Below, one piece after another: positions 3,629 through 60,369 of a DNA stretch of 60,790 bases (its first letter is position 1; every line of letters starts with the position of its first letter). The DNA comes from Candidatus Wolfebacteria bacterium (GTDB lineage: Bacteria; Patescibacteriota; Minisyncoccia; UBA6257; UBA9933), in NCBI GenBank assembly GCA_016188075.1, contig JACPIO010000014.1, positions 1 through 60,790 on the forward strand, written 5' to 3'. A program made the position numbers and the translations under genes. The notes under the pieces were generated by a model. The model had not been told where the DNA came from and did not search any database. It saw only the letters and a list, made by a program, of their open reading frames with translations.

Positions 3629-3669
3629 TTTTGTATCTCTTATAAGATTAATCTCGTATAATGTACACA
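3629..3669 (+). repeat. 41-nt direct repeat copy 2 (with TATAAT at 3657-3662)
   Basis: Matches 1756..1796 with one mismatch. Confidence 0.85.
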
Positions 3670-3718
3670 TTTTTACACTGTCTTGATTAATAAGGAGAAA
3701 TGGTGTTATACTTAGTTG

Positions 3719-5677: not shown

Positions 5678-7768
5678 ATGCCCAAGAAAGCTTTAAAAAC
5701 AGAAAAAAAACCGCCTGTAATCGGCCAAAATCAAAAACCGGAAAATAATCACAACGCCTCGGCTTCCTATGGAGCCAAGGATATTTACGTTCTCGAAGGT
5801 TTGGAGCCGGTCCGGAAACGGCCGGGAATGTATATCGGCTCAACCGGAGTGGATGGCTTACATCATTTGATTTGGGAAGTTTGCGACAACAGCCTCGACG
5901 AGGCAATGGCTGGTTTTGCCAAAAATATCCGGGTGGAGCTTTTGCCGGATAACAAAGTGGCGGTGACTGACGACGGCCGAGGCATTCCGGTTGATATTCA
6001 CTCGCAGACAAAAAAATCAGCCCTGGAAACCGTGATGTGTACTTTGCATGCCGGCGGAAAGTTCGGCGGCGAATCCTATAAGGTCGCGGGCGGTCTTCAC
6101 GGCGTAGGCGTTTCTGTGGTTAACGCGCTTTCCCAGTGGATGCGGGTTGAGGTTTGTCGCGAAGGCGAGCTCTGGTCCCAGGAATACGAGCGCGGTAATC
6201 CGAAATATAAAGTTAAAAAAGAAGGGAAATGCGGCGAGAATGGCACAAGGGTAACTTTTTCTCCGGATCCCAAAGTTTTTTCCAAAATCGAATTTGACCG
6301 TAAAAGAATTTTAGATCATCTTCGCCAGCAGGCTTTCTTAACCAAGGGTGTTAAAATCGAAATTATGGATTCCCGGGACGATCCGCCTTTTTACTACGGT
6401 TTTCAATTCGAGGGCGGGCTTTTATCTTTTATTCAATATCTCGACGAATCCAATGAAGAGATTCAGAAGGAGATTTTTTATACGCATAAAAATTATGAGG
6501 ATATCGATGTTGAAGCAGCTTTTTCTTACAACAAAGAAAGCGATACGCAAGAATTGAGTTTTGCCAACAATATTTATACTCCGGATGGCGGAATGCATTT
6601 AACCGGATTTCGATCAGCCTTGACCAGAACCTTAAACGATTACGCCCGAAAAGAAGGATATCTCAAAAATTCTGATGAAAATCTGATTGGTGACGATGTG
6701 CGGGAAGGGTTAGTCGCGATCGTTTCTGTCAAACTTCGCGAGCCGCAATTTGAAGGTCAAACCAAGGCGCGATTGGGCAATCCGCCGGCTCGAACCGCGG
6801 TTGAGGCGGTGGTGGCCGAAGCTTTAAAAGAATTTTTAGAGAAAAATTCTAATGACGCCCGCGTCATCCTTGACAAGTGTTTGCTTACGCAAAAATCCCG
6901 CAAAGCGGCCCGGGCGGCAAAAGAAAGCGTTTTAAGAAAAGGCGTGCTTGACGGAATGACTTTGCCGGGCAAGCTGGCCGATTGCTCGAGTCGTAATCCA
7001 GAGGAATCGGAATTATTTATCGCGGAAGGCGATTCGGCCGGAGGCTCGGCCAAATCAGCGCGCGACAGGCGATATCAGGCGATTCTTCCTTTGCGCGGAA
7101 AAATTTTAAATGTTGAAAAATCCCGGATTGATAAAATGCTTTTAAATAAAGAAATCCGGTCATTGGTTATGGCCATTGGCACCGCTATTGGCGACGAGTT
7201 CGATATTTCGAAAATCAGATATCATCGGGTGATTCTCGCGACGGACGCCGACGTCGACGGCGCGCATATCCGAACTCTGCTTTTAACGCTGTTTTACCGT
7301 TATTTTATTCAGATAATTGAAAAGGGCCATCTTTACATTGCCCAACCGCCGCTCTATCGTATTCAATCCGGAAAGGAGGCGAGATACGCTTATACAGATT
7401 ATCAAAAGGAATTGATCGTTGCTGATTTTCAAAAAATTAAAGATCAAAAATTATTTTTGCGAAGCAAATCCCCGGAGGGTCAGATTAAAAATACAGATCA
7501 AAAAGTAAAAATTGAGGAAAAAGAAGAAAAGGAAGGAGAGGGCACGAAAGGCATCAGTATCCAGCGTTATAAGGGTTTGGGCGAGATGAATCCGGAACAA
7601 CTTTGGGAGACAACCATGGATCCGGAAAAAAGAATTTTGAAATTGGTAATGATTGAAGACGCTAAAGAGGCGGAACGGTTGTTTGATATTTTGATGGGCG
7701 AAGCAGTCGAGCCGCGAAAGCATTTTATCCAGAGTCAGGCGACAATGGTTAAAAATCTTGACGTTTAA
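5678..7768 (+). CDS. gyrB: DNA gyrase subunit B
   Basis: GLHHLIWEVCDNSLDEA, LHGVG, EGDSAGG, PLRGKILNVE, IATDADVDGAHI, YKGLGEMNPEQLWETTMDP. Confidence 0.97.
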   Translation: MPKKALKTEKKPPVIGQNQKPENNHNASASYGAKDIYVLEGLEPVRKRPGMYIGSTGVDGLHHLIWEVCDNSLDEAMAGFAKNIRVELLPDNKVAVTDDGRGIPVDIHSQTKKSALETVMCTLHAGGKFGGESYKVAGGLHGVGVSVVNALSQWMRVEVCREGELWSQEYERGNPKYKVKKEGKCGENGTRVTFSPDPKVFSKIEFDRKRILDHLRQQAFLTKGVKIEIMDSRDDPPFYYGFQFEGGLLSFIQYLDESNEEIQKEIFYTHKNYEDIDVEAAFSYNKESDTQELSFANNIYTPDGGMHLTGFRSALTRTLNDYARKEGYLKNSDENLIGDDVREGLVAIVSVKLREPQFEGQTKARLGNPPARTAVEAVVAEALKEFLEKNSNDARVILDKCLLTQKSRKAARAAKESVLRKGVLDGMTLPGKLADCSSRNPEESELFIAEGDSAGGSAKSARDRRYQAILPLRGKILNVEKSRIDKMLLNKEIRSLVMAIGTAIGDEFDISKIRYHRVILATDADVDGAHIRTLLLTLFYRYFIQIIEKGHLYIAQPPLYRIQSGKEARYAYTDYQKELIVADFQKIKDQKLFLRSKSPEGQIKNTDQKVKIEEKEEKEGEGTKGISIQRYKGLGEMNPEQLWETTMDPEKRILKLVMIEDAKEAERLFDILMGEAVEPRKHFIQSQATMVKNLDV

Positions 7769-10748: not shown

Positions 10749-10789
10749 AAAAACATTCCAACATTCTATAGAATGTTGGAATGTTTTTT
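10749..10789 (+). terminator. Rho-independent terminator (AAAAACATTCCAACATTC tata GAATGTTGGAATGTTTTT)
   Basis: Perfect hairpin flanked by A and T runs, so bidirectional. Near-identical stem at 59894..59927. Confidence 0.8.
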
Positions 10790-10829
10790 ATTGGAGGTTA
10801 ATAACCTGGATAACTAATAAACTAATTCG

Positions 10830-23400: not shown

Positions 23401-23425
23401 TTTTTACTAAAGTTAAGTTTACTAA

Positions 23426-23467
23426 TTACTAAAGTTATGACGACGGCCGTCGCAGAAACTTTAGTAA
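23426..23467 (+). repeat. Hairpin module TTACTAAAGTT-(n)-CGACGGCCGTCGC-(n)-AACTTTAGTAA
   Basis: Second copy at 29605..29648 with the same arms and the same GACGGCCGTC centre. Confidence 0.8.
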
Positions 23468-23512
23468 CTTAAAGGGTTGACAAAAAATTGCTTTAAACTA
23501 TTCTGAATAATA

Positions 23513-24130: not shown

Positions 24131-24133
24131 ATA

Positions 24134-24177
24134 TTTGTATATTATAAAAGATTAATCTTATATAAGGTAAACATTTT
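24134..24177 (+). promoter_or_regulatory. Copy of the AGATTAATCT palindrome module upstream of rnhB
   Basis: tttgtatattataaaAGATTAATCTtatataaggtaaacatttt; same core as 1756, 3629 and 34366. Confidence 0.45.
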
Positions 24178-24253
24178 TTGGGAAAGGCGTTTGGCCTCTT
24201 TGAAAGAGCTTCAGCCTTTGAAAGACTTTCAGCCGCGGTGTATTATCTTGTAG

Positions 24254-24934
24254 ATGGTAAGGGATAAAAAGTTTATTATCGGCATTGATGAAGTGGGGAG
24301 GGGGGCTTTGGCCGGAACAGTAACCGTGGCGGCTGTTGCGTTGCCGAGGAATTTTCAATTTCCAATTCTTAATTTTCAATTAAATTCTAAATATAAAATT
24401 TCAAAATTAAAATTACGAGATTCAAAAAGATTGACTCCAAAACGCCGGGAAGTTTGGTTTCGATACGTTAATCAACAAACAACGGCAAATAACAAACGAC
24501 AGCGAATTTTTTATGCCGTAGCTTCGGTGACGCCGAAAGTTATTGATAAAATTAATATTTCAAATGCCGCTGATTTAGCCGCCACGAGAGCTTTAGAGAA
24601 ACTAATTACCAATTACCAATTACCAATTACTAAAACGAAGGTTTTTCTCGACGGCGGACTCTACATTAAAGAATTAAGAATAAAGAATAAAGAATTAAGA
24701 ATTAAAGGTAAGACTATTATAAAAGGTGATGAGAAAATTCCGGCGATTGCGTTGGCTTCGATTATGGCCAAAGTCACCCGCGACCGATATATGAAAAAAT
24801 TCCATAGAAAATACCCGGAATACGATTTTATAAACAATGTCGGTTATGGGACTAAGAAGCATATCAAAGCTGTAAGGAAATATGGTTTGTCGTTAATTCA
24901 TCGTCGAAGTTTCAAAATAAATAAAAATAATTGA
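24254..24934 (+). CDS. rnhB: Ribonuclease HII (with low-complexity insertions)
   Basis: IIGIDEVGRGALAGTVTVAAV, DSKRLT, ASIMAKVTRD. Confidence 0.9.
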   Translation: MVRDKKFIIGIDEVGRGALAGTVTVAAVALPRNFQFPILNFQLNSKYKISKLKLRDSKRLTPKRREVWFRYVNQQTTANNKRQRIFYAVASVTPKVIDKINISNAADLAATRALEKLITNYQLPITKTKVFLDGGLYIKELRIKNKELRIKGKTIIKGDEKIPAIALASIMAKVTRDRYMKKFHRKYPEYDFINNVGYGTKKHIKAVRKYGLSLIHRRSFKINKNN

Positions 24935-24991
24935 CTTTTCCCTTCATTTTCTCTATCCTTACTCATAAAGGTAATCCTTCGGCAAGCTCAG

Positions 24992-25068
24992 GATGCTGAA
25001 TTTTTTCCGCCTGAGGCGGATCTGCCCATGGCAGACAGCTACTCGCGTTGCTCGCAGGAAAAATTCGC
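24992..25068 (+). repeat. About 78-nt multi-hairpin element, copy 1 (5' leader of rpmF)
   Basis: Reverse complement of 29485..29562 with 2 mismatches. GAATTTTTT/AAAAAATTC closing stem around the CCGCC-tga-GGCGG and TCTGCC-cat-GGCAGA hairpins. Confidence 0.85.
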
Positions 25069-25263
25069 ATGGGTGGCGTACCAGTAAAACATCATACGCA
25101 TTCAAAAGTGGGCCGGCGGCGGTCGCATTTGGCGTTAAAACCTTCGCAGATGTTCGCTTGTTCCAATTGCGGCCATCCGATTTTGCCCCATCGTTTTTGC
25201 GTGAATTGCGGAAATTATAAAGGGAGAATTATTAAAGAACCGAAAATAAAGATAAAGAAGTAG
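25069..25263 (+). CDS. rpmF: 50S ribosomal protein L32
   Basis: MGGVPVKHHTHSKVGRRRSH...CSNCGHPILPHRFCVNCGNYKG. The track ORF starts at 25048. Confidence 0.85.
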   Translation: MGGVPVKHHTHSKVGRRRSHLALKPSQMFACSNCGHPILPHRFCVNCGNYKGRIIKEPKIKIKK

Positions 25264-25792: not shown

Positions 25793-26482
25793 GTGAATTT
25801 ATCTTCGCTCGAAAAAAATCTCGGAATTGTTTTTGAAAACAAAACTCTTCTTAAGGAAGCCTTAACTCATCGTTCTTATCTTAACGAAAATTCTTCGTGG
25901 GGAATTCTTCATAATGAACGTTTGGAATTTTTGGGCGATGCCGTTTTGGAATTGGCCGTAACCGAAAATCTTTTCAGCCGTTTTCCCAAATACGCCGAGG
26001 GACAGCTTACCAGCATTCGGGCGGCTTTGGTCAATTATCAAATGATGGCCAAAGTGGCGCGGGAAATTGATCTTGAAAATTTTGTTTTGATGTCCCGCGG
26101 CGAGGCGAAAGATGTCGGTCGCGCCCGAGAAGTGATTCTGGCGAACGCGATGGAAGCCTTGATCGGCGCCGTTTACCTTGATCACGGCTACGAAGCCGCC
26201 CAAAAGATGGTTGAAAAAATCGTTCTCGCGCCCAATCTTGAAGTGGTAATGAAAAATCATCTTTACAAAGATCCCAAAAGCGAGCTTCAGGAAATTGTTC
26301 AAGAAAAGCATCGGATTACGCCAATTTATCAAATTATCGAGGAATGGGGGCCGGATCACAAAAAGATTTTCCGGAGTGGCGTTTTGATGGGAGAAAAGTT
26401 ATTGGCCGAAGGCGAGGGCTACTCCAAGCAGGAAGCGGAAACGGAAGCGGCGAGAAACGCGTTAAAGAAGATCAACGAATAG
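25793..26482 (+). CDS. rnc: Ribonuclease III
   Basis: NERLEFLGDAVLEL signature plus a C-terminal dsRBD. Confidence 0.93.
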   Translation: MNLSSLEKNLGIVFENKTLLKEALTHRSYLNENSSWGILHNERLEFLGDAVLELAVTENLFSRFPKYAEGQLTSIRAALVNYQMMAKVAREIDLENFVLMSRGEAKDVGRAREVILANAMEALIGAVYLDHGYEAAQKMVEKIVLAPNLEVVMKNHLYKDPKSELQEIVQEKHRITPIYQIIEEWGPDHKKIFRSGVLMGEKLLAEGEGYSKQEAETEAARNALKKINE

Positions 26483-26559
26483 CGAATCTGTTCGAATAAG
26501 CGAATCAGCGAATTCGTTTATTCGTAAATTCGTATCAATTCGTTATTCGTTGATAAGGC

Positions 26560-29484: not shown

Positions 29485-29562
29485 TGCGAATTTTTTCTGC
29501 GAGCAACGCGAGTAACTGTCTGCCATGGGCAGATCCGCCTCAGGCGGAAAAAATTCAGCATC
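29485..29562 (-). repeat. About 78-nt multi-hairpin element, copy 2 (inverted)
   Basis: Starts 2 nt after the KH gene stop. See 24992..25068. Confidence 0.85.
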
Positions 29563-29563
29563 C

Positions 29564-29601
29564 CGCCCCCACGCTTACGCGTAAGTGTGGGGGCGTGTTT
29601 T
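29564..29601 (+). terminator. Rho-independent terminator CGCCCCCACgCTTAC gc GTAAGtGTGGGGGCG plus TGTTTT
   Basis: GC-rich stem plus T-run. Confidence 0.7.
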
Positions 29602-29604
29602 AGA

Positions 29605-29648
29605 TTTACTAAAGTAATCGCGACGGCCGTCGCCATAACTTTAGTAAA
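29605..29648 (+). repeat. Hairpin module TTTACTAAAGT-(n)-CGACGGCCGTCGC-(n)-ACTTTAGTAAA
   Basis: Sister of 23426..23467. Confidence 0.8.
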
Positions 29649-29788
29649 TTGAGAAACTGCTAAATTGTTGAAAAATTTTCAAATTTCAAATCAAGGTTAT
29701 TTCTAAGGACATCGCAAGTCCTTAGTTAGATTGAATAGTGGTTAATTTTCTGGTTAGATTATAGCGACATCGGGACCGCCATAGTTAT

Positions 29789-30478
29789 ATGAAATTTGAT
29801 ATCATTACAATTTTTCCCCATATTTTCGATTCTTATTTCAATGAATCCATTATTAAACGCGCCCGCGAGAAAAAATTGATTCAGGTAAAAATTTGGAATC
29901 TCCGCGATTTCGCGGTTGGCAAACACAAGTCGGTTGATGATTCTCCTTTTGGCGGCGGTCCGGGGATGGCATTAAAGATTGAACCGATAATTAAAGCGGT
30001 TCAATCTTTAAATTCAAAAATCATTTTTGCGAAGCAAATCCCCGGAGGGTCAAATAAAAAATCAAAAATCATTCTTTTTTCCGCGCGCGGCCAGCAATTT
30101 GATAATAAAATGGCGAGCAGACTCGCAAAAAATTATGAGCGACTGATTTTAATCTGCGGCCGCTATGAGGGGGTGGACGAACGAGTGAAGAAAGCGATAG
30201 GCGATTTAGGATTAGAAATTCAGGAGTTATCCATTGGGCCGTATATTTTGACAGGCGGAGAGGTACCGGCAATGGTTGTCGTAGATGCTGTTTCAAGGCA
30301 TTTGCCCGGAGTTTTGGGTCGGCGGGAGTCGCTCGAGGAAATTAAAGGTTCTTATCCGGTTTATACGCGGCCAGAGGTTTTTGAATTCCGGGGTCGGAAA
30401 TACCCGGTGCCTAAGATGCTGGTTAGGGGAGATCACGAGAAAATTGAGCGTTGGCGGAGGAGTCGGGGCCGGTCGTGA
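29789..30478 (+). CDS. trmD: tRNA (guanine37-N1)-methyltransferase
   Basis: FDIITIFP, DDSPFGGGPGM, ICGRYEGVDERV, GGEVPAMV. Confidence 0.93.
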   Translation: MKFDIITIFPHIFDSYFNESIIKRAREKKLIQVKIWNLRDFAVGKHKSVDDSPFGGGPGMALKIEPIIKAVQSLNSKIIFAKQIPGGSNKKSKIILFSARGQQFDNKMASRLAKNYERLILICGRYEGVDERVKKAIGDLGLEIQELSIGPYILTGGEVPAMVVVDAVSRHLPGVLGRRESLEEIKGSYPVYTRPEVFEFRGRKYPVPKMLVRGDHEKIERWRRSRGRS

Positions 30479-30545: not shown

Positions 30546-31304
30546 ATGGAAGAACAGGTTTTAGACCAAGAAAAAATTGAAAAAGAAGATGATTTATTGC
30601 CCCCGAATGTTTCGAAAGAAGATTTGGCGATTTTGGAGGAGATGATGCGAGCCGGAATGATGTACGGCCACAAAAAATCGAAGACCAATCCCAAATTCCG
30701 TCCGTATATCTATACCACTCGCAACGGCCTGGAAATTATCGATTTAGCGCAGACGATTCCGGCGTTGGAGAGCGCGGCAGAGTTTTTGAAAGGAAAAATA
30801 AAAGAAGGGGCTGTTGTTTTGGTCGCGGCTACCCAGCCAGCCGCGAGGGATGCCGTGGAGGCATTGGCCAAAAAATTCAACTTTTCTTTCATCAACGAAC
30901 GCTGGATCGGCGGTCTTTTGACGAATTTCAAAGTTATCTCCAGCCGGATTGAATACTTCAAAAAAATTAAGGCTGATTTTGACGCCGGCCGATTCGAGAA
31001 ATACACTAAAAAAGAACGAGTGATGATCAATCGCGATATCGACCGGATGAAAAAAATGTTCACCGGTTTGGAGAATTTGCTGAAAGTGCCGGATGTTCTT
31101 GTGATCATCGATCCCATCTTGAAAGGGCACGTGACAGCCCTAAGGGAAGCGAAGCGATTAAAAATTAAAACCATCGCGATTGTAGACAGCGATGACGATC
31201 CCGAAGCGGTGGATTTCCCGATTCCGGCCAATGACCATTCGAAAGCCAGCATTGATTGGATTATTGAAAAAATTTCAGCGTATTTGGAGAAAATCAACGA
31301 ATAA
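30546..31304 (+). CDS. rpsB: 30S ribosomal protein S2
   Basis: MMRAGMMYGHKKSKTNPKF...ERWIGGLLTNF...AIVDSDDDP. Confidence 0.95.
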   Translation: MEEQVLDQEKIEKEDDLLPPNVSKEDLAILEEMMRAGMMYGHKKSKTNPKFRPYIYTTRNGLEIIDLAQTIPALESAAEFLKGKIKEGAVVLVAATQPAARDAVEALAKKFNFSFINERWIGGLLTNFKVISSRIEYFKKIKADFDAGRFEKYTKKERVMINRDIDRMKKMFTGLENLLKVPDVLVIIDPILKGHVTALREAKRLKIKTIAIVDSDDDPEAVDFPIPANDHSKASIDWIIEKISAYLEKINE

Positions 31305-31402
31305 CGAATCTGTTTCGAATAATCGAATAATCGAATATACGAATCCGTAATTCGTTTATTCGTAAATTCGTAATAAATTCGCTATTCGATGATACTCATC
31401 AA

Positions 31403-34340: not shown

Positions 34341-34365
34341 CATAGACTCTAACAGAAATTTGGTA

Positions 34366-34393
34366 CCTCTTATAAGATTAATCTTATAAGAGG
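34366..34393. promoter_or_regulatory. 28-bp perfect palindrome CCTCTTATAAGATTAATCTTATAAGAGG
   Basis: Self-complementary. Shares the AGATTAATCT core with 1756, 3629 and 24134. Confidence 0.6.
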
Positions 34394-34598
34394 TAAACAT
34401 TTTATTTAAGAATAAATTAGCCCCGGCGCTGGATTGGACAGACGCCGGGGCTGGTTTTCGGGTCCGCGGTGCTCGGTGGGATCCCTTGCTGGCTAGCTTT
34501 TGCCAGCAAGGGCAGTGACCCCGACTTTTCGATTGGACGAGCCACCAAGATAGCCGAGGCCTATTCGTCATAGGCGTCTCCTTTCTCTGGCTCCGGCA

Positions 34599-35224: not shown

Positions 35225-35520
35225 ATCTAAGTGAACCCGTCCGCGCCGCAAGCGGCGCGGCATCAGGGCGGGTTCGATCCAATAAGGGTCGGCTCCGCCG
35301 AGATTCATAGTTGCGCCATTCATCCTCGCCGCAAGCGGCGAGGAATTGCTGGCGCTTGGATTAAATCGCTACGTTTAAACGTAGCGCCGCGAGATCGGCG
35401 TATTAAACCATCGCATCCTTCCAGGCGTGGGGTAAAATACTTTATGAACGGCGTTTTGGCGATGGCAGTAGTCGCGAAAAGAAACGCGCGCGAGTTGAAC
35501 TCGCTTGCTCTTAAATTTTA
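35225..35520 (+). ncRNA. GC-rich island E: candidate structured RNA or long 5' leader of pcm
   Basis: Nested helices GAACCCG/CGGGTTC, ATCCAA/TTGGAT, GCGCCA/TGGCGC and CCATCGC/GCGATGG. Two GCCGCAAGCGGC hairpins. GCGCTACGTTTAAACGTAGCGC. The track ORF 35231..35539 is not protein-like. Confidence 0.4.
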
Positions 35521-49605: not shown

Positions 49606-49953
49606 TTTTCAGCCAAATTTTTGATACAATCGGATTGTTACGAAAATTAAAGGTTTACCCAGAATAAGCGGTTAGATTATACTCACGTAAACATGGCAAG
49701 CCATTAATAGTCTTCCACAGCCCCAATACGCCACCCGCATGGCGCATTCAGCAGGCGAAAACAGGATTTGCGCATAGTTTTAGGCCTAGATGTGTAGATT
49801 GTGGTATTTTTGTGTAGTTTTGACTATGACTTGTGTAGATTTAAAGTCCATAGTATATCTAAAGGGTGCCGATAAAACTTTTCGTGTTACACGGGGTCGA
49901 GACAACGTGCGAGGATGTTTAGCAAAAATAGAATTTTAAAAATAAAATATTTC

Positions 49954-50244: not shown

Positions 50245-50502
50245 AAAGGGAGATCTTCATACTTCGCCCGGTAGTGAATGGGTTTAGGGTGCTTATCAAA
50301 GACACCCGGTTTTTTGATGTAAGCGTTGATGATGTAATGAAATAAATTTATGAGAATAAAAGATTTACCAAAAAGCATGCCCCGTAGTGAACTTGCCTGC
50401 CCCGCTGGAAGCTTGCTTTCCTGCGGGGTTCTCCTTCGGGGTCAATGCGCCACCCGGGTGGCGTATTGGAGAAAATGGGGCTTAATCTAAGTGACTATTG
50501 AC

Positions 50503-56444: not shown

Positions 56445-59400
56445 AAAAACTTAACGAAGACACACTAACCGAACAGCCGGTCATAGAGTGGTTCAAGGAG
56501 ATGGGCTATGACCACGAAAAAGGGCCTGACATAGCGCCTGGACAAATTACCGGCGAGCGCGAGGACTTTCGCGAGGTAGTTTTGGTTGGACGGCTTAAGC
56601 GGTATATTCGTCGTCTCAATCCTGATTTACCGGAAGCCGCTATTGATGATGTCGCGCGGAGTTTGAAATCAGAACATCCGAATTTGGAAATCGCGAATAA
56701 AGAAATTTATACTATGCTGACGCAAGGTGTGCGCGTTAATTTTCGGGGCGCGGACGAAGAAGATATTTGGCGATTCGCGAAAATTGTTGATTTTGATAAC
56801 CCCCAGAATAATGAATTTCTTGTCATCAATCAATTCGCGATTCAGGGATCGGAAAAGGTTCGCCGACCGGATGTGGTTGTTTTTGTAAACGGAATCCCGC
56901 TTGCGATTTTCGAACTCAAAAACCCAGCGCTTGAAAATGCGACAATCTACACTGCCTATGAGCAGCTGCGGGAGTATAAAAAAGATATTCCGGAGATCTT
57001 CAAATACAATCAGGTACTTGTTGTTGGCGATTTAATTGAAGCGAGACACGGCACAATTTCATCGTCGTGGGAGTGGTTTTCGCACTGGAAAGGCATTGAA
57101 AGCGAAGATGAGCAGAATCACGGCATTTCTGAGCTTGAAACCTTAGCGCGAGGAATTTTTCATAAAATTCGATTTTTGGATATTGTCCGGAACTTTATTA
57201 TTTTTGAGGCCGATGCCGAAAAAGACGCAAGTAAATTCACAAAAAAGATGGCAATGTACCATCAATACTTTGGCGTAAACAAAGCCGTGAATGAGACTTT
57301 GCGCGCCGCAAAGCCGAGGGGAAATAAAAAAATCGGTGTTTTCTGGCATACGCAAGGATCGGGCAAATCGCTTTCAATGGTTTTTTATACAAACAAAGCC
57401 AAGCGGTTGGAAGAATTAAAAAGCCCGACATTTGTATTTTTGACTGACAGAAACGATCTTGATGGACAGTTTTATAAAACATTTTTGCGAAGTGGCTATC
57501 CAAGCGCGAAGCAAGCGGAAAGCGTCACTGGATTGAAAGAAAGATTACGCGAAGCGGCCGGCGAACTTATTTTTACGACAATTCAGAAATTTGATACTGA
57601 ATATGAGGTTTTGAGCGAACGAGAAAATATCATTGTTATTGCGGACGAAGCGCATCGCTCGCAGTATGCGAAATTTGCTGGCAATGTCCGAGTTGCTTTA
57701 CCGAACGCCTCGTTCATGGGCATCACGGGTACCCCGATAAGTCTGCAAAATCGCGAAACGCGACTTGTATTTGGAAACCACATCAGCGAATACAAGATAA
57801 ACCAAGCCGTAGAAGACGGCGCAACCGTTCCGATTTATTACGAAGGTCGCCTCGTGCCTTTGCATCTGGCGAATCAATTTATTGATGAGGAGTTTGAGGA
57901 CTTGACCGGCGAGATAGAATTTGAGGCAAAAGAAGTGTACAAGCGTAAATGGGCGCGACTTGAGCAAGCCGTAAGCGCAAAAGATCGTCTGGAGCAAGTG
58001 GCAAAAGATATAGTTTCGCATTTTAACAATCGCGGGCTTGAGGGAAAAGGAATGATTGTGACAATTTCGAGAAAGACGGCGGTTGAGATGTATAAAATAA
58101 TTTCAAAGTTATTGAGCGCGCCCGCCTACGCCGACCTGCGCTTCGCCGATGGCTCCATCAAGGCGAGGGCTTCGGCGGGCAAGCCGGAAGTGGCGGTTGT
58201 TATTTCAAAACCGGAAGATTTTCCGGAACTTCATCAAAGCAGAGATACAAAAGAGCTGGAAAAAAGATTTAAAAATCCCGATGACTCATTGAAACTCGTG
58301 ATTGTATGCGATATGTGGTTGACCGGCTTTGATGTTCCTTCGCTTCACACTATGTATATTGATAAGCCGCTCAAAAATCATACCTTGATGCAAGCGATAG
58401 CTCGCGTCAATAGAATTTTTAAGGACAAGCCCGGCGGTCTTATCGTGGACTATATTGGAATTGCTGACGATCTAAAGAAAGCCCTCTCAATTTATAGTTC
58501 AGGCATACAGAAGGAGGCAATGATACCGATTGAGGAAATTATTGCCAAGATGATGGAAAAATACGATATCGTTCGCGCGATGTTTGCTGGCGTTGAATAC
58601 AAGGAATGGAAGAAGCTGAAAGGCTCGGACCTGGCGCAGCTATTTCAAAAAGCGGTCAATACGATTATCACGAACGAAAGAAGCGGAATGGTTGATGATG
58701 AACAGAAAAAACGATTTGCGAAAGAAACAGAACTACTCTCACAGCTTTTTGCATTTGCTATGCCGCACAAGGAAGCAAACGCCATACGAAATGAAGTTGA
58801 ATTTTTCCAAGCAGTGAAGCGTGCGGTTATTAAACGGATAATCATCCAGCCCGAAGGCATTGGGTTTGATATTGAATCTGCTGTACGAGAGCTTGTTTCC
58901 AAGGCCATATCTGCCGAGGGAGTCATTGATATTTTTGACATGAAGGGCAAAGGAAGGCCGGACATTTCTATTTTTGATGAGAAGTTTTTGGAAGAGGTGA
59001 AAAATCTGAAGTACAAGAATCTTTCCGTGGATGTGCTTCGCAAACTCTTGAATGATGAGCTCCGAGTGAGGATGAGGAAAAATCTGGTTCGTTACAAATC
59101 GCTTCTTGATATGTTGGAAGATATAATTGAAAAATACGAAAACAACATCATCAATTCCACGAAAGTTATTGAGAAACTGATTGAATTGGCAAAGGAAATC
59201 CGGAAGGTTGAGAAACAGGGCGAAGGCATCGGCTTGTCAGAGGAAGAAATGGCGTTTTATGATGCGATATCCGTCGGACGCAAAGCAATCAACGGAAATG
59301 GAAAATTTAAGGAATTGGTACGCGAGCTTGTAAAAATCATCAAGAGAGATTTGGCGATTGATTGGATGAATAATGATATAATCAAAGCGAGGATTCGTGC

Positions 59401-59538: not shown

Positions 59539-59889
59539 ATGACTCTCATTCTCATCTCCATAATTATTTTTCTGGCCGCGGCGGTTGTGGCGCTGGTTGT
59601 TTTCGCGCGCAAAGAGGCGGGGAAACACGGCACAAGCGTGAAGGAAGAATTTGTCGGGATCTGCGCCTCGGCCATTGAAACGGCTTCGCAGAAGGAGGCT
59701 CGCAAGGAAAGCGCGCTCGCGTATCTACGCTCGCGCGGTGAGCTTTCCAACTCCGAAATCCGCAAAGCGCTTGGTGTTTCCAGCCGTACAGCCGTGCGCT
59801 ATCTGGACGAATTGGAGGCGGAAGGAAAAGTGGAACAGGTCGGCAAAATCGGCCACACCGTCACTTATCGTCTAAAACACACCGCCTAG
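59539..59889 (+). CDS. Membrane-anchored winged-HTH protein
   Basis: N-terminal TM helix. SNSEIRKALGVSSRTAVRYLDELEAEGKV. Confidence 0.55.
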   Translation: MTLILISIIIFLAAAVVALVVFARKEAGKHGTSVKEEFVGICASAIETASQKEARKESALAYLRSRGELSNSEIRKALGVSSRTAVRYLDELEAEGKVEQVGKIGHTVTYRLKHTA

Positions 59890-59893
59890 AATA

Positions 59894-59927
59894 AACATTC
59901 CAACATTCTGCAGAATGTTGGAATGTT
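59894..59927 (+). terminator. Hairpin AACATTCCAACATTC tgca GAATGTTGGAATGTT
   Basis: Same stem as 10749..10789. No T-run here. Confidence 0.5.
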
Positions 59928-60138
59928 GCGAATACGCCACCCGCCTGGCGTATTGAGAGCGAGGTGCTCCCTCCAGAAGCGGGCAGGCACCACGGAGGAC
60001 CCCAGTAGTAGAGCGCAAAGCGTTCACTACGGGGCAAGGATTAAAATTGTGGAAAATAAATAAAATTATGAATAATCAAAACTCAAAAAAATATTTGCTT
60101 CAGTTTTAGTCCGTCCAATGAAGTGATAATATAAGCTC

Positions 60139-60369
60139 ATGATCCTGAAAGAAAACAATTTTGCATACATAGACGGCGCGAACTTGCACAAAGGTGTGGC
60201 TGGTTTAGGCTGGAGGTTAAATTACAAACGATTCAGAGTGTGGCTGTCTGAAAAATATGGAGTGCGCGCCGCATATCTCTTCATGGGGCTCATACGTGCC
60301 CATTTAGAGCTTACCCAAAAAGAAAAAGCCCCCGGCGGGGACGGAACCCCGCAAGGGTCTTTTTCGTGA
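60139..60369 (+). pseudogene. Truncated NYN/LabA-like (PIN-fold) gene
   Basis: FAYIDGANLHKGVAGLGWRLNYKRFRVWL matches NYN N-termini. The ORF ends after 76 aa in unrelated sequence. Confidence 0.45.

Follow-up and report, generated by a model that had tools for sequence, protein, structure and literature searches.

Ever since the small dispersed repeats (SDRs) of cyanobacteria were described, it has been an open question by what means repeats of less than ~30 nt move. The present analysis concerns a repeat of this size found within gyrB and trmD on a 60,790-nt contig of a Candidatus Wolfebacteria bacterium (JACPIO010000014.1, the whole of which is here called the window), a groundwater member of the Parcubacteria/Paceibacterota whose closest TrmD relatives are 68–70% identical and whose closest GyrB relatives are ~80% identical. 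The closest described kinds of element are the SDRs and the GC clusters of yeast mitochondria. We know of no enzyme that moves SDRs. As reportedly described by Elhai et al. 2008 (Genome Res 18:1484), the SDRs of the Nostocaceae are 21–27 nt long, form hairpins and lie nested in other repeats, and their mobility is said to have been deduced from their exact presence in some relatives and absence from others. One article terms them 'short mobile elements' and has none outside the Nostocaceae (PMC5861425), and another also cites them (PMC3116915, ref 43). The yeast mitochondrial GC clusters are GC-rich palindromes of 30–80 bp in AT-rich DNA, single or in tandem, which occur in VAR1/rps3 and in rRNA genes (PMC4464245). 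Rickettsia palindromic elements (RPEs), which are rickettsial, measure ~150 bp (100–150 bp), are palindromic over their length and have a conserved peptide open reading frame (ORF) of their own (PMC10969869). Furthermore, for the short hairpin repeats of the repetitive extragenic palindromic (REP)/REPIN kind with RAYT, and for IS200/IS605, all without target duplication, handling of single strands by HUH Y1 enzymes has been proposed (PMC3116915, PMC6006769). No report of such elements in the Candidate Phyla Radiation (CPR)/Patescibacteria was found in the literature searched.

Both sites in the window are interpreted here as copies of a very small, non-autonomous dispersed repeat that would be copied in trans, most likely via a folded single strand, a reading given a probability of roughly two in three. 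The unit is a 25-nt GC-rich core made from two adjoining mini-hairpins and is gained or lost as a discrete piece of 27–30 nt. That it is a discrete mobile unit is very probable, and the family is apparently among the smallest mobile DNA units known.

The repeat pair in gyrB and trmD

The features of the two host genes are, by position in the window:

5678–7768, + strand: gyrB host gene (Pfam HATPase_c, DNA_gyraseB, Toprim, DNA_gyraseB_C)
7437–7453, + strand: gyrB left flank, A-rich, similar to 30007–30023; pre-existing linker, found in the insert-free relatives L023 and L025
7454–7480, + strand: 27-nt inserted unit of gyrB, T + 25-nt core TTTTGCGAAGCAAATCCCCGGAGGG (7455–7479) + T, read (L)FLRSKSPEG; a gap against L023 and L025
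7481–7504, + strand: gyrB right flank, A-rich, holding the second AGATCAAAAA; pre-existing linker, outside the insert
29789–30478, + strand: trmD host gene (Pfam tRNA_m1G_MT)
30024–30050, + strand: 27-nt unit of trmD, identical in sequence to the gyrB unit, T + core (30025–30049) + T, read (I)FAKQIPGG
30051–30073, + strand: trmD right flank, A-rich, with the second TCAAAAATCATT coding for conserved SKII(LF)
7456–7468 and 30026–30038, + strand: hairpin 1, TTTGC-GAA-GCAAA, 5-bp stem, GAA triloop, GCGAAGC centre, as read from the sequence
7470–7479 and 30040–30049, + strand: hairpin 2, CCC(C)-GGA-GGG, predicted in every fold

The 30-mer ATTTTTGCGAAGCAAATCCCCGGAGGGTCA has exactly two exact copies in the window, at 7453–7482 and 30023–30052, both on the + strand, and none of 100 dinucleotide-preserving shuffles contained a matching 30-mer pair, even with three mismatches permitted. 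The identity from which the sequence-only reading had set out is thus exact, and its statement that the two copies are read in different frames is confirmed by codon phase, position 7453 being the third base of a gyrB codon and position 30023 the first base of a trmD codon, with the resulting peptides LFLRSKSPEGQ in GyrB and IIFAKQIPGGS in TrmD. Ungapped similarity of the two sites extends over 56 nt with 89% identity (7437–7492 versus 30007–30062). Of the extent of 30–37 nt originally given to the repeat, the exact shared 30-mer stands, but the inserted unit is 27 nt, consisting of the 25-nt core and two further bases; the limits of the trmD unit were inferred by analogy with the gyrB unit. 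After removal of these 27 nt the trmD sequence reads LNSKITNKKSKIILF, which is similar to the TrmD loops of other Parcubacteria.

Both sites were reproduced with 0 differences in Logan assemblies made independently for several groundwater metagenome runs, among them a contig of 4,159 nt that covers 7200–7750, and since these contigs are identical at both sites, an assembly artefact is excluded. The broader explanation by ancestral peptide segments, a chance match or an artefact of assembly or polishing has a vanishingly small probability: the loops are hypervariable in all relatives and KQIP-like peptides occur at the same place in some TrmD relatives, but the shuffles, the difference in frame, the exact empty sites described below and the agreement of the independent assemblies all stand against it. 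The Logan short-read contigs break at the trmD 30-mer (30024–30053), the length of the repeat being sufficient to fragment k=31 graphs; that k-mer graphs break at such 30-mers is a warning for assembly in general.

Empty sites and host loops

An empty gyrB site is found in two relatives (L023 and L025; 73–74% protein identity), which share the linker KIK(D/N)QK-SKIKIT-(D/E)Q... without exactly the 27 nt of the unit, and the DNA alignment of the window with both shows a single clean 27-nt gap, TTTTTGCGAAGCAAATCCCCGGAGGGT. Because these insert-free genes already contain the A-rich flanks and the AGATCAAAAA pair, both represent a pre-existing low-complexity linker. The resemblance between the flanks of the two sites, to which the sequence-only reading had drawn attention, is therefore real, but it belongs to the linker present before insertion and not to the insert. 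A target-site duplication, suggested by the occurrence of TCAAAAATCATT twice, 48 nt apart, and of AGATCAAAAA twice, 54 nt apart, was excluded because the insert-free gyrB has the repeats and the true gap is 27 nt.

The topA genes of L012 and L026, with 97.9% nucleotide identity, differ in exactly three indels, and no others are found in ~4.2 kb of shared coding sequence (topA + relA/spoT):

L012 only: topA 27-nt unit CTTTTGCGAAGCAAATCCCCGGAGGGA, within an (AATTCCC)4 array, uninterrupted in L026
L026 only: topA 30-nt unit AGACCCTCCGGGGATTTACCTTCAGCAAAA, an antisense core variant (reverse complement TTTTGCTGAAGGTAAATCCCCGGAGGGTCT)
L026 only: topA 30-nt unit TCTCCC-TAC-GGGAGA + TCTCCC-GAA-GGGAGA, in ordinary coding sequence (WPMQF^EEK) with no array

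Strains that are 98% identical differ in the presence or absence of such units. The two units confined to L026 are missing from every other TopA relative and hence are insertions, and in the more distantly related TopA of L027 the same loop is occupied by yet a different GC-rich hairpin of 30 nt, CCCGCC...GGCGGG. None of the four empty sites shows a target-site duplication. A miniature inverted-repeat transposable element was rejected on this ground and because the two ends, TTTTGCG... and ...GGAGGG, do not match as inverted repeats. In the topA-relA spacer of L012 (4170–4480), ~300 nt are missing from the 98%-identical L026; this stretch has GTCATTGCGAGG...CGAAGCAATCT palindromes within (ATTGACC/ACTGACY)n arrays. 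This type of palindrome is widespread across phyla, and no literature on it was found under the peptide strings searched.

All four mapped coding indels are multiples of 3 (P ~0.012) and open in the frame used, so that the coding units are almost certainly translated, with selection filtering for frame, and would be read through as 9–10 extra residues. It might be asked whether the units are instead skipped, either by translational bypass as in the mitochondrial 'byp' elements, which are thought to be derived from GC clusters (PMC4464245), or by removal from the mRNA; skipping would, however, need neither lengths in multiples of 3 nor freedom from stops in frame, both of which are seen in all mapped coding units, and its probability is judged to be close to nil. 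The proposal of a repeat at the DNA level that enters coding sequence and is tolerated there in frame, already made from the sequence alone, gains support from the exact absence of 27 nt in the gyrB relatives and in the 97.9%-identical topA allele. A 'designed' compatibility with ORFs was also considered and dismissed: the core is stop-free in six frames, but so are 11–14% of comparable 25-mers, and two sister units are not.

With regard to the proteins, the inserted residues 80–88 of TrmD (FAKQIPGGS) correspond to a stretch of the AlphaFold model with a low predicted local distance difference test score (pLDDT), in a loop between helix 64–82 and strand 91–103, and solved TrmD structures have a gap at this position. 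This loop is hypervariable across Parcubacteria, some relatives being insert-free and others having simple-repeat peptides such as SKFKILNSKQIPNSKFKK; in L021 its DNA is an AAATTCA-type array that still has AAACAAATCCC in common with the core. In GyrB the insert is positioned between QPPLY and QRYKGLGEM, in a segment that ranges from ~20 to ~60 residues among relatives and is unaligned to all solved structures, E. coli GyrB having a large species-specific insertion at the same junction. The sequence-only reading had expected surface loops; the insert of TrmD maps to a loop and that of GyrB to a hypervariable junction. Furthermore, the view that both sites fall within inserted segments holds for the discrete 27-nt unit but not for the whole loop, which is hypervariable in all relatives and not one insertion. 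The GyrB proteins of several relatives from the Parcubacteria (P0166, P0192, P0199, P0202 and P0234; ~1,100–1,200 aa) contain the intein domain PF14890, of which there is none in the window GyrB.

The dispersed family and its two hairpins

The extent of the family was assessed by scanning metagenome contigs for the exact 21-nt centre of the core, GCGAAGCAAATCCCCGGAGGG. It is contained in 19 metagenome loci, 17 of which are AT-rich (34–40% GC) and Parcubacteria-like. The centre is always preceded by TTTT in these AT-rich loci (17/17), though these bases lie outside the query, and this constancy leads to the 25-nt core. The majority of copies are intergenic, at ~11 distinct sites and in either orientation relative to the adjacent genes; there the core lies close to the tip of extended AT-rich inverted repeats, ATCAACGAATAACGAAT ... 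ATTCGTTATTCGTTGAT. Coding copies, six or more, lie within long ORFs in the sense orientation and in-frame, the hosts outside the window being:

L012: TopA, peptide PFAKQIPGG
L004/8/9/17, one locus from four metagenomes: PolB-like 3'-5' exonuclease, peptide LLRSKSPEG
L016: PEP-utilising enzyme, two copies 53 nt apart in different frames, peptides LLRSKSPEGQ and FCEANPRRV

Together with GyrB and TrmD of the window, the host proteins are five and unrelated, and all three sense frames are used (LRSKSPEG, FAKQIPGG and CEANPRR), which further supports a repeat acting at the level of DNA. For annotation this carries the warning that repeats may be the source of short peptides shared identically by CPR proteins that are otherwise unrelated.

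Inverted repeats of the ATCAACGAATAACGAAT / ATTCGTTATTCGTTGAT type are also present directly downstream of genes at 26471–26554 and 31293–31393 of the window, in L001–L018 and at L021:4575–4725. They are conserved between genera, with the core at the apex in relatives and core-free in the window, and may be terminators or a separate palindromic repeat of ~120 nt.

The copies are inverted only in L003 and in tandem in L010, L016 and L021. An array of clustered regularly interspaced short palindromic repeats (CRISPR), with at least three regularly spaced repeats and unique spacers, was ruled out, there being at most 2 adjacent copies with low-complexity sequence between them. The density, with 2 copies in the 60.8-kb window and one site in 19.6 kb of L021, amounts to ~one site per 20–30 kb; DNA uptake sequences (DUS; uptake signal sequences, USS), which occur at ~one per kb in both orientations, were ruled out on this basis. 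In the source metagenomes k-mer depth climbs 6–30x exactly over the core, and ~5–6 more loci at the depth of this genome have 41–58 nt in common with the trmD copy; one of these continues ...LEAAYKAIQKSFLRSKSPEGQ, which points to probable additional coding copies beyond the window. Exact-string searches returned 0 matches in viral contigs, plasmids and phages and, among genome representatives, 0 matches to the 29-mer and only one to the 21-mer, which was GC-rich and unrelated. A scan of the window for GC islands that might be more units was too unspecific to use. A core match with 5 mismatches, GTTTGCGAAGCACATCCACGGAAAG, at 59021–59045 on the − strand lies in ordinary coding sequence of an HsdR-like ORF and is probably due to chance.

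The core is surrounded by at least three unrelated classes of arms (A-rich, ATTYCCA and CGAATAA hairpins), and the junctions within a genome are alike: in the window they read T-core-T, the arms being TCAAAAATYA, and in L004 and L012 they read C-core-AG, the arms being ATTYCCA. Heptamer periodicity is weak in the window flanks and clear in L004, L012, L016 and the intergenic copies. Such arms might have allowed the repeat to spread without a dedicated enzyme, through ectopic gene conversion or oligonucleotide-like annealing, possibly of competence DNA, with the low-complexity arms acting as short homology. This would be in line with the arms already being at the empty sites, with no duplication having formed, with the sharing of arms and even junction bases by copies of one genome (window; L004 + L012), and with other source-community loci having as much as 58 nt in common with the trmD copy. 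On the other hand, the identical core is found in at least three unrelated arm classes, one 30-nt topA unit is located in ordinary coding sequence without an array, and the flanks of the core in GC-rich genomes are quite different; this explanation, the main rival, is considered unlikely.

Heptanucleotide arrays were also observed within an RNase HII-like ORF of the window (24254–24934; arrays at 24357–24386, 24590–24633 and 24663–24715), and coding arrays of this kind (AATTTCC, AATTACC, AAGAATW, AATTCCC) occur at three sites in TopA of L012 and in TrmD of P0002/L021. They encode 7-residue periodic peptides (NFQFPILNFQ, ITNYQLPIT and KELRIKNKELRIK), vary greatly even between close strains and would be favoured places for hairpin units to land.

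The core forms a GC island, with 56% GC compared to 29% for the flanking 40 nt. GCGAAGC, the centre of hairpin 1, is the well-known DNA mini-hairpin of exceptional stability, whose loop is a GNA triloop. Hairpin 1 takes the form TTCGCC-AAA-GGCGAA in L010 and L021 and CCCC-TTGA-GGGG in L013, hairpin 2 the form CCCC-GAA-GGG in L021 and TCTCCC-GAA-GGGAGA in L026, and AAATCCCCGGAGGG is kept while other hairpins substitute for hairpin 1. The L026 variant of hairpin 1, TTTGCT-GAA-GGTAAA, has two G.T wobbles that equal A.C mismatches on the opposite strand. Because the architecture is kept with changed letters, the fold is conserved, probably on the core-sense strand. No covariance-model match to Rfam 15 was obtained at any copy up to E = 1. 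A tRNA or rRNA fragment, considered for the T-loop-like string CAAATCC, was ruled out, there being no stem partner and no Rfam match, and a promoter or terminator reading was ruled out by poor spacing and the lack of a strong hairpin. A double mini-hairpin of the same architecture, CTGCC-ATG-GGCAG AT CCGCC-TCA-GGCGG, is contained in a 79-nt inverted repeat of the window (24991–25069 / 29485–29563), the copies of which are 97% complementary, 4.4 kb apart and upstream of rpmF and trmD. An intergenic GC-rich double hairpin at 60327–60361, AGCCCCCGGCGGGGACGGAACCCCGCAAGGGTCTT, with −19 kcal/mol, may be a terminator or a further unit of the gyrB/trmD kind.

Three contigs of unrelated bacteria with ~60% GC also have the core motif in intergenic position, as (T/G)GCCGCGAAGCAAATCCCCGGAGGGGA(C/T), with 21–26 nt identical:

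L013:5622 and 6926, − strand: core copies in a GC-rich contig
L019:890, + strand: core copy in a GC-rich contig
L020:5197, + strand: core copy in a GC-rich contig

Each of these copies is enclosed by a different outer helix, and the second L013 copy has another hairpin 1. One or two chance 21-mer matches are conceivable at this database size but the extra shared flank bases are not, so that either the motif or its reader appears to extend across phyla. Such conservation could also be that of a selected signal, for example a site for protein binding, a sequence for uptake, or a small module serving as structured RNA or terminator, with the coding copies as by-products: the 25-mer is identical between genera with TrmD only 68% identical, a covarying outer helix closes around the 21–26 nt identical in the three GC-rich contigs, and intergenic copies stand at the apex of long hairpins directly downstream of genes. 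Nevertheless, a function hardly explains insertions in essential proteins, and the lack of an Rfam family match, the low density, the differing presence and absence between 98%-identical strains, the occurrence of the same architecture in several unrelated sequences and the use of both orientations make a selected signal improbable.

Candidate mechanism and comparison with known systems

According to the preferred reading, the units would be mobile DNA that is not autonomous and is copied in trans. A folded single strand as the intermediate is suggested by three features: target-site duplications and terminal inverted repeats are lacking, the units depend on small hairpins, and the wobble pairing is specific to one strand. 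The folded intermediate, either single-stranded DNA at the replication fork or an RNA/complementary DNA (cDNA) intermediate, would be recognised through its two hairpins in a manner similar to that of HUH-type enzymes on REP and IS200/IS605 ends (PMC6006769, PMC3116915). Selection would then retain only in-frame insertions, in tolerant loops, and the A-rich or heptamer-array flanks would represent preferred landing sites outside the element. The specific mechanism, that is, a folded single-strand intermediate handled by an HUH Y1-like or RNA/cDNA route, is put forward by analogy and tentatively, with odds clearly below even.

Several points weigh against this interpretation. No mobilising enzyme was identified in the ~330 kb of DNA examined, in which transposase or RAYT-like genes were not systematically sought; the four mapped insertion sites have no common target motif; and no insert-free variant was seen in the Logan contigs of the source population. 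At the gyrB site and at the topA 27-nt site loss is as parsimonious as gain, and the two window copies, with their flanks alike, could have been made by ectopic gene conversion. The copies were found via exact match, so that the perfection of the core is partly due to ascertainment, and the ViennaRNA fold of the 56-nt region is no better than that of shuffles (z −0.5 to −1.0). Positive GC skew across the whole window places the core-sense strand of both copies on the lagging-strand template; this speaks suggestively in favour of the preferred reading, but it concerns two copies (n=2) that also agree in the direction of their genes, a confounding factor.

A bolder extension, more doubtful still, is that 25–30-nt double-hairpin 'nano-elements' form the smallest class of bacterial mobile DNA outside cyanobacteria, with a cross-phylum machinery reading folded single strands. 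If true, this machinery would explain the identical 21–26-mers in Parcubacteria and in GC-rich Proteobacteria-like contigs, and in reduced CPR genomes the nano-elements would keep reshaping the surface loops of essential proteins. The family in any case provides new material, in which strains show clean gains and losses and the two-hairpin architecture is defined and has compensatory variants, and its copies inside the well-understood essential genes gyrB, topA and trmD make the question of mobility testable by comparative genomics and biochemistry. It also illustrates one way in which lineage-specific protein loops arise in streamlined CPR genomes.

The window contains other short repeats as well. 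A 46-nt repeat around the palindrome TTATAAGATTAATCTTATAA is found upstream of genes at 1756–1801, 3629–3674, 24133–24178 and 34359–34404 and could be a promoter or operator motif. Small palindromic families, mostly intergenic and terminator-like, are located at 23417–23470 and 29597–29650; at 10752–10798 and 59881–59927; at 49723–49751, 50444–50470 and 59931–59957; and at 35240–35263 and 35323–35346.

Comparison with the described systems places the Parcubacteria unit at different distances from each. The likeness to RPEs proposed in the sequence-only reading applies to the outcome, since both are non-autonomous repeats positioned in-frame in unrelated housekeeping genes and tolerated there. 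It does not extend to size, overall palindromy or family membership: the unit is 27 nt long, is read in any frame and has two separate mini-hairpins rather than one long palindrome, and it is not an RPE. A REP is a single imperfect palindrome of 20–40 nt with a conserved GT(A/G)G head. The unit shares with REPs and IS200/IS605 ends the short hairpins and the absence of target duplication, which makes these a plausible model of the mechanism; unlike these systems, it has two hairpins, no GTAG head and no conserved target tetranucleotide. Whereas REPs are extragenic and often in inverted pairs, most copies of the unit are intergenic, six or more lie in coding sequence, and an inverted arrangement is confined to L003. 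No RAYT gene was identified in the 60.8 kb and the short loci, of which no systematic scan was made. With the yeast mitochondrial GC clusters it has in common a GC-rich core in AT-rich flanks (56% against 29%), tandem copies (L016, L021), indels between strains and an altered size of the product, but it is bacterial, is 25–30 nt long, belongs to no M/G/V consensus class and occurs in several different host proteins. In comparison with SDRs, which were compared by description only, the phylum and the sequence are different and the Parcubacteria units are repeatedly in-frame in essential genes; the 25-nt core in units of 27–30 nt, the hairpin potential, the nesting within other repeats and the precise presence or absence between close relatives are, in contrast, features that the two have in common.

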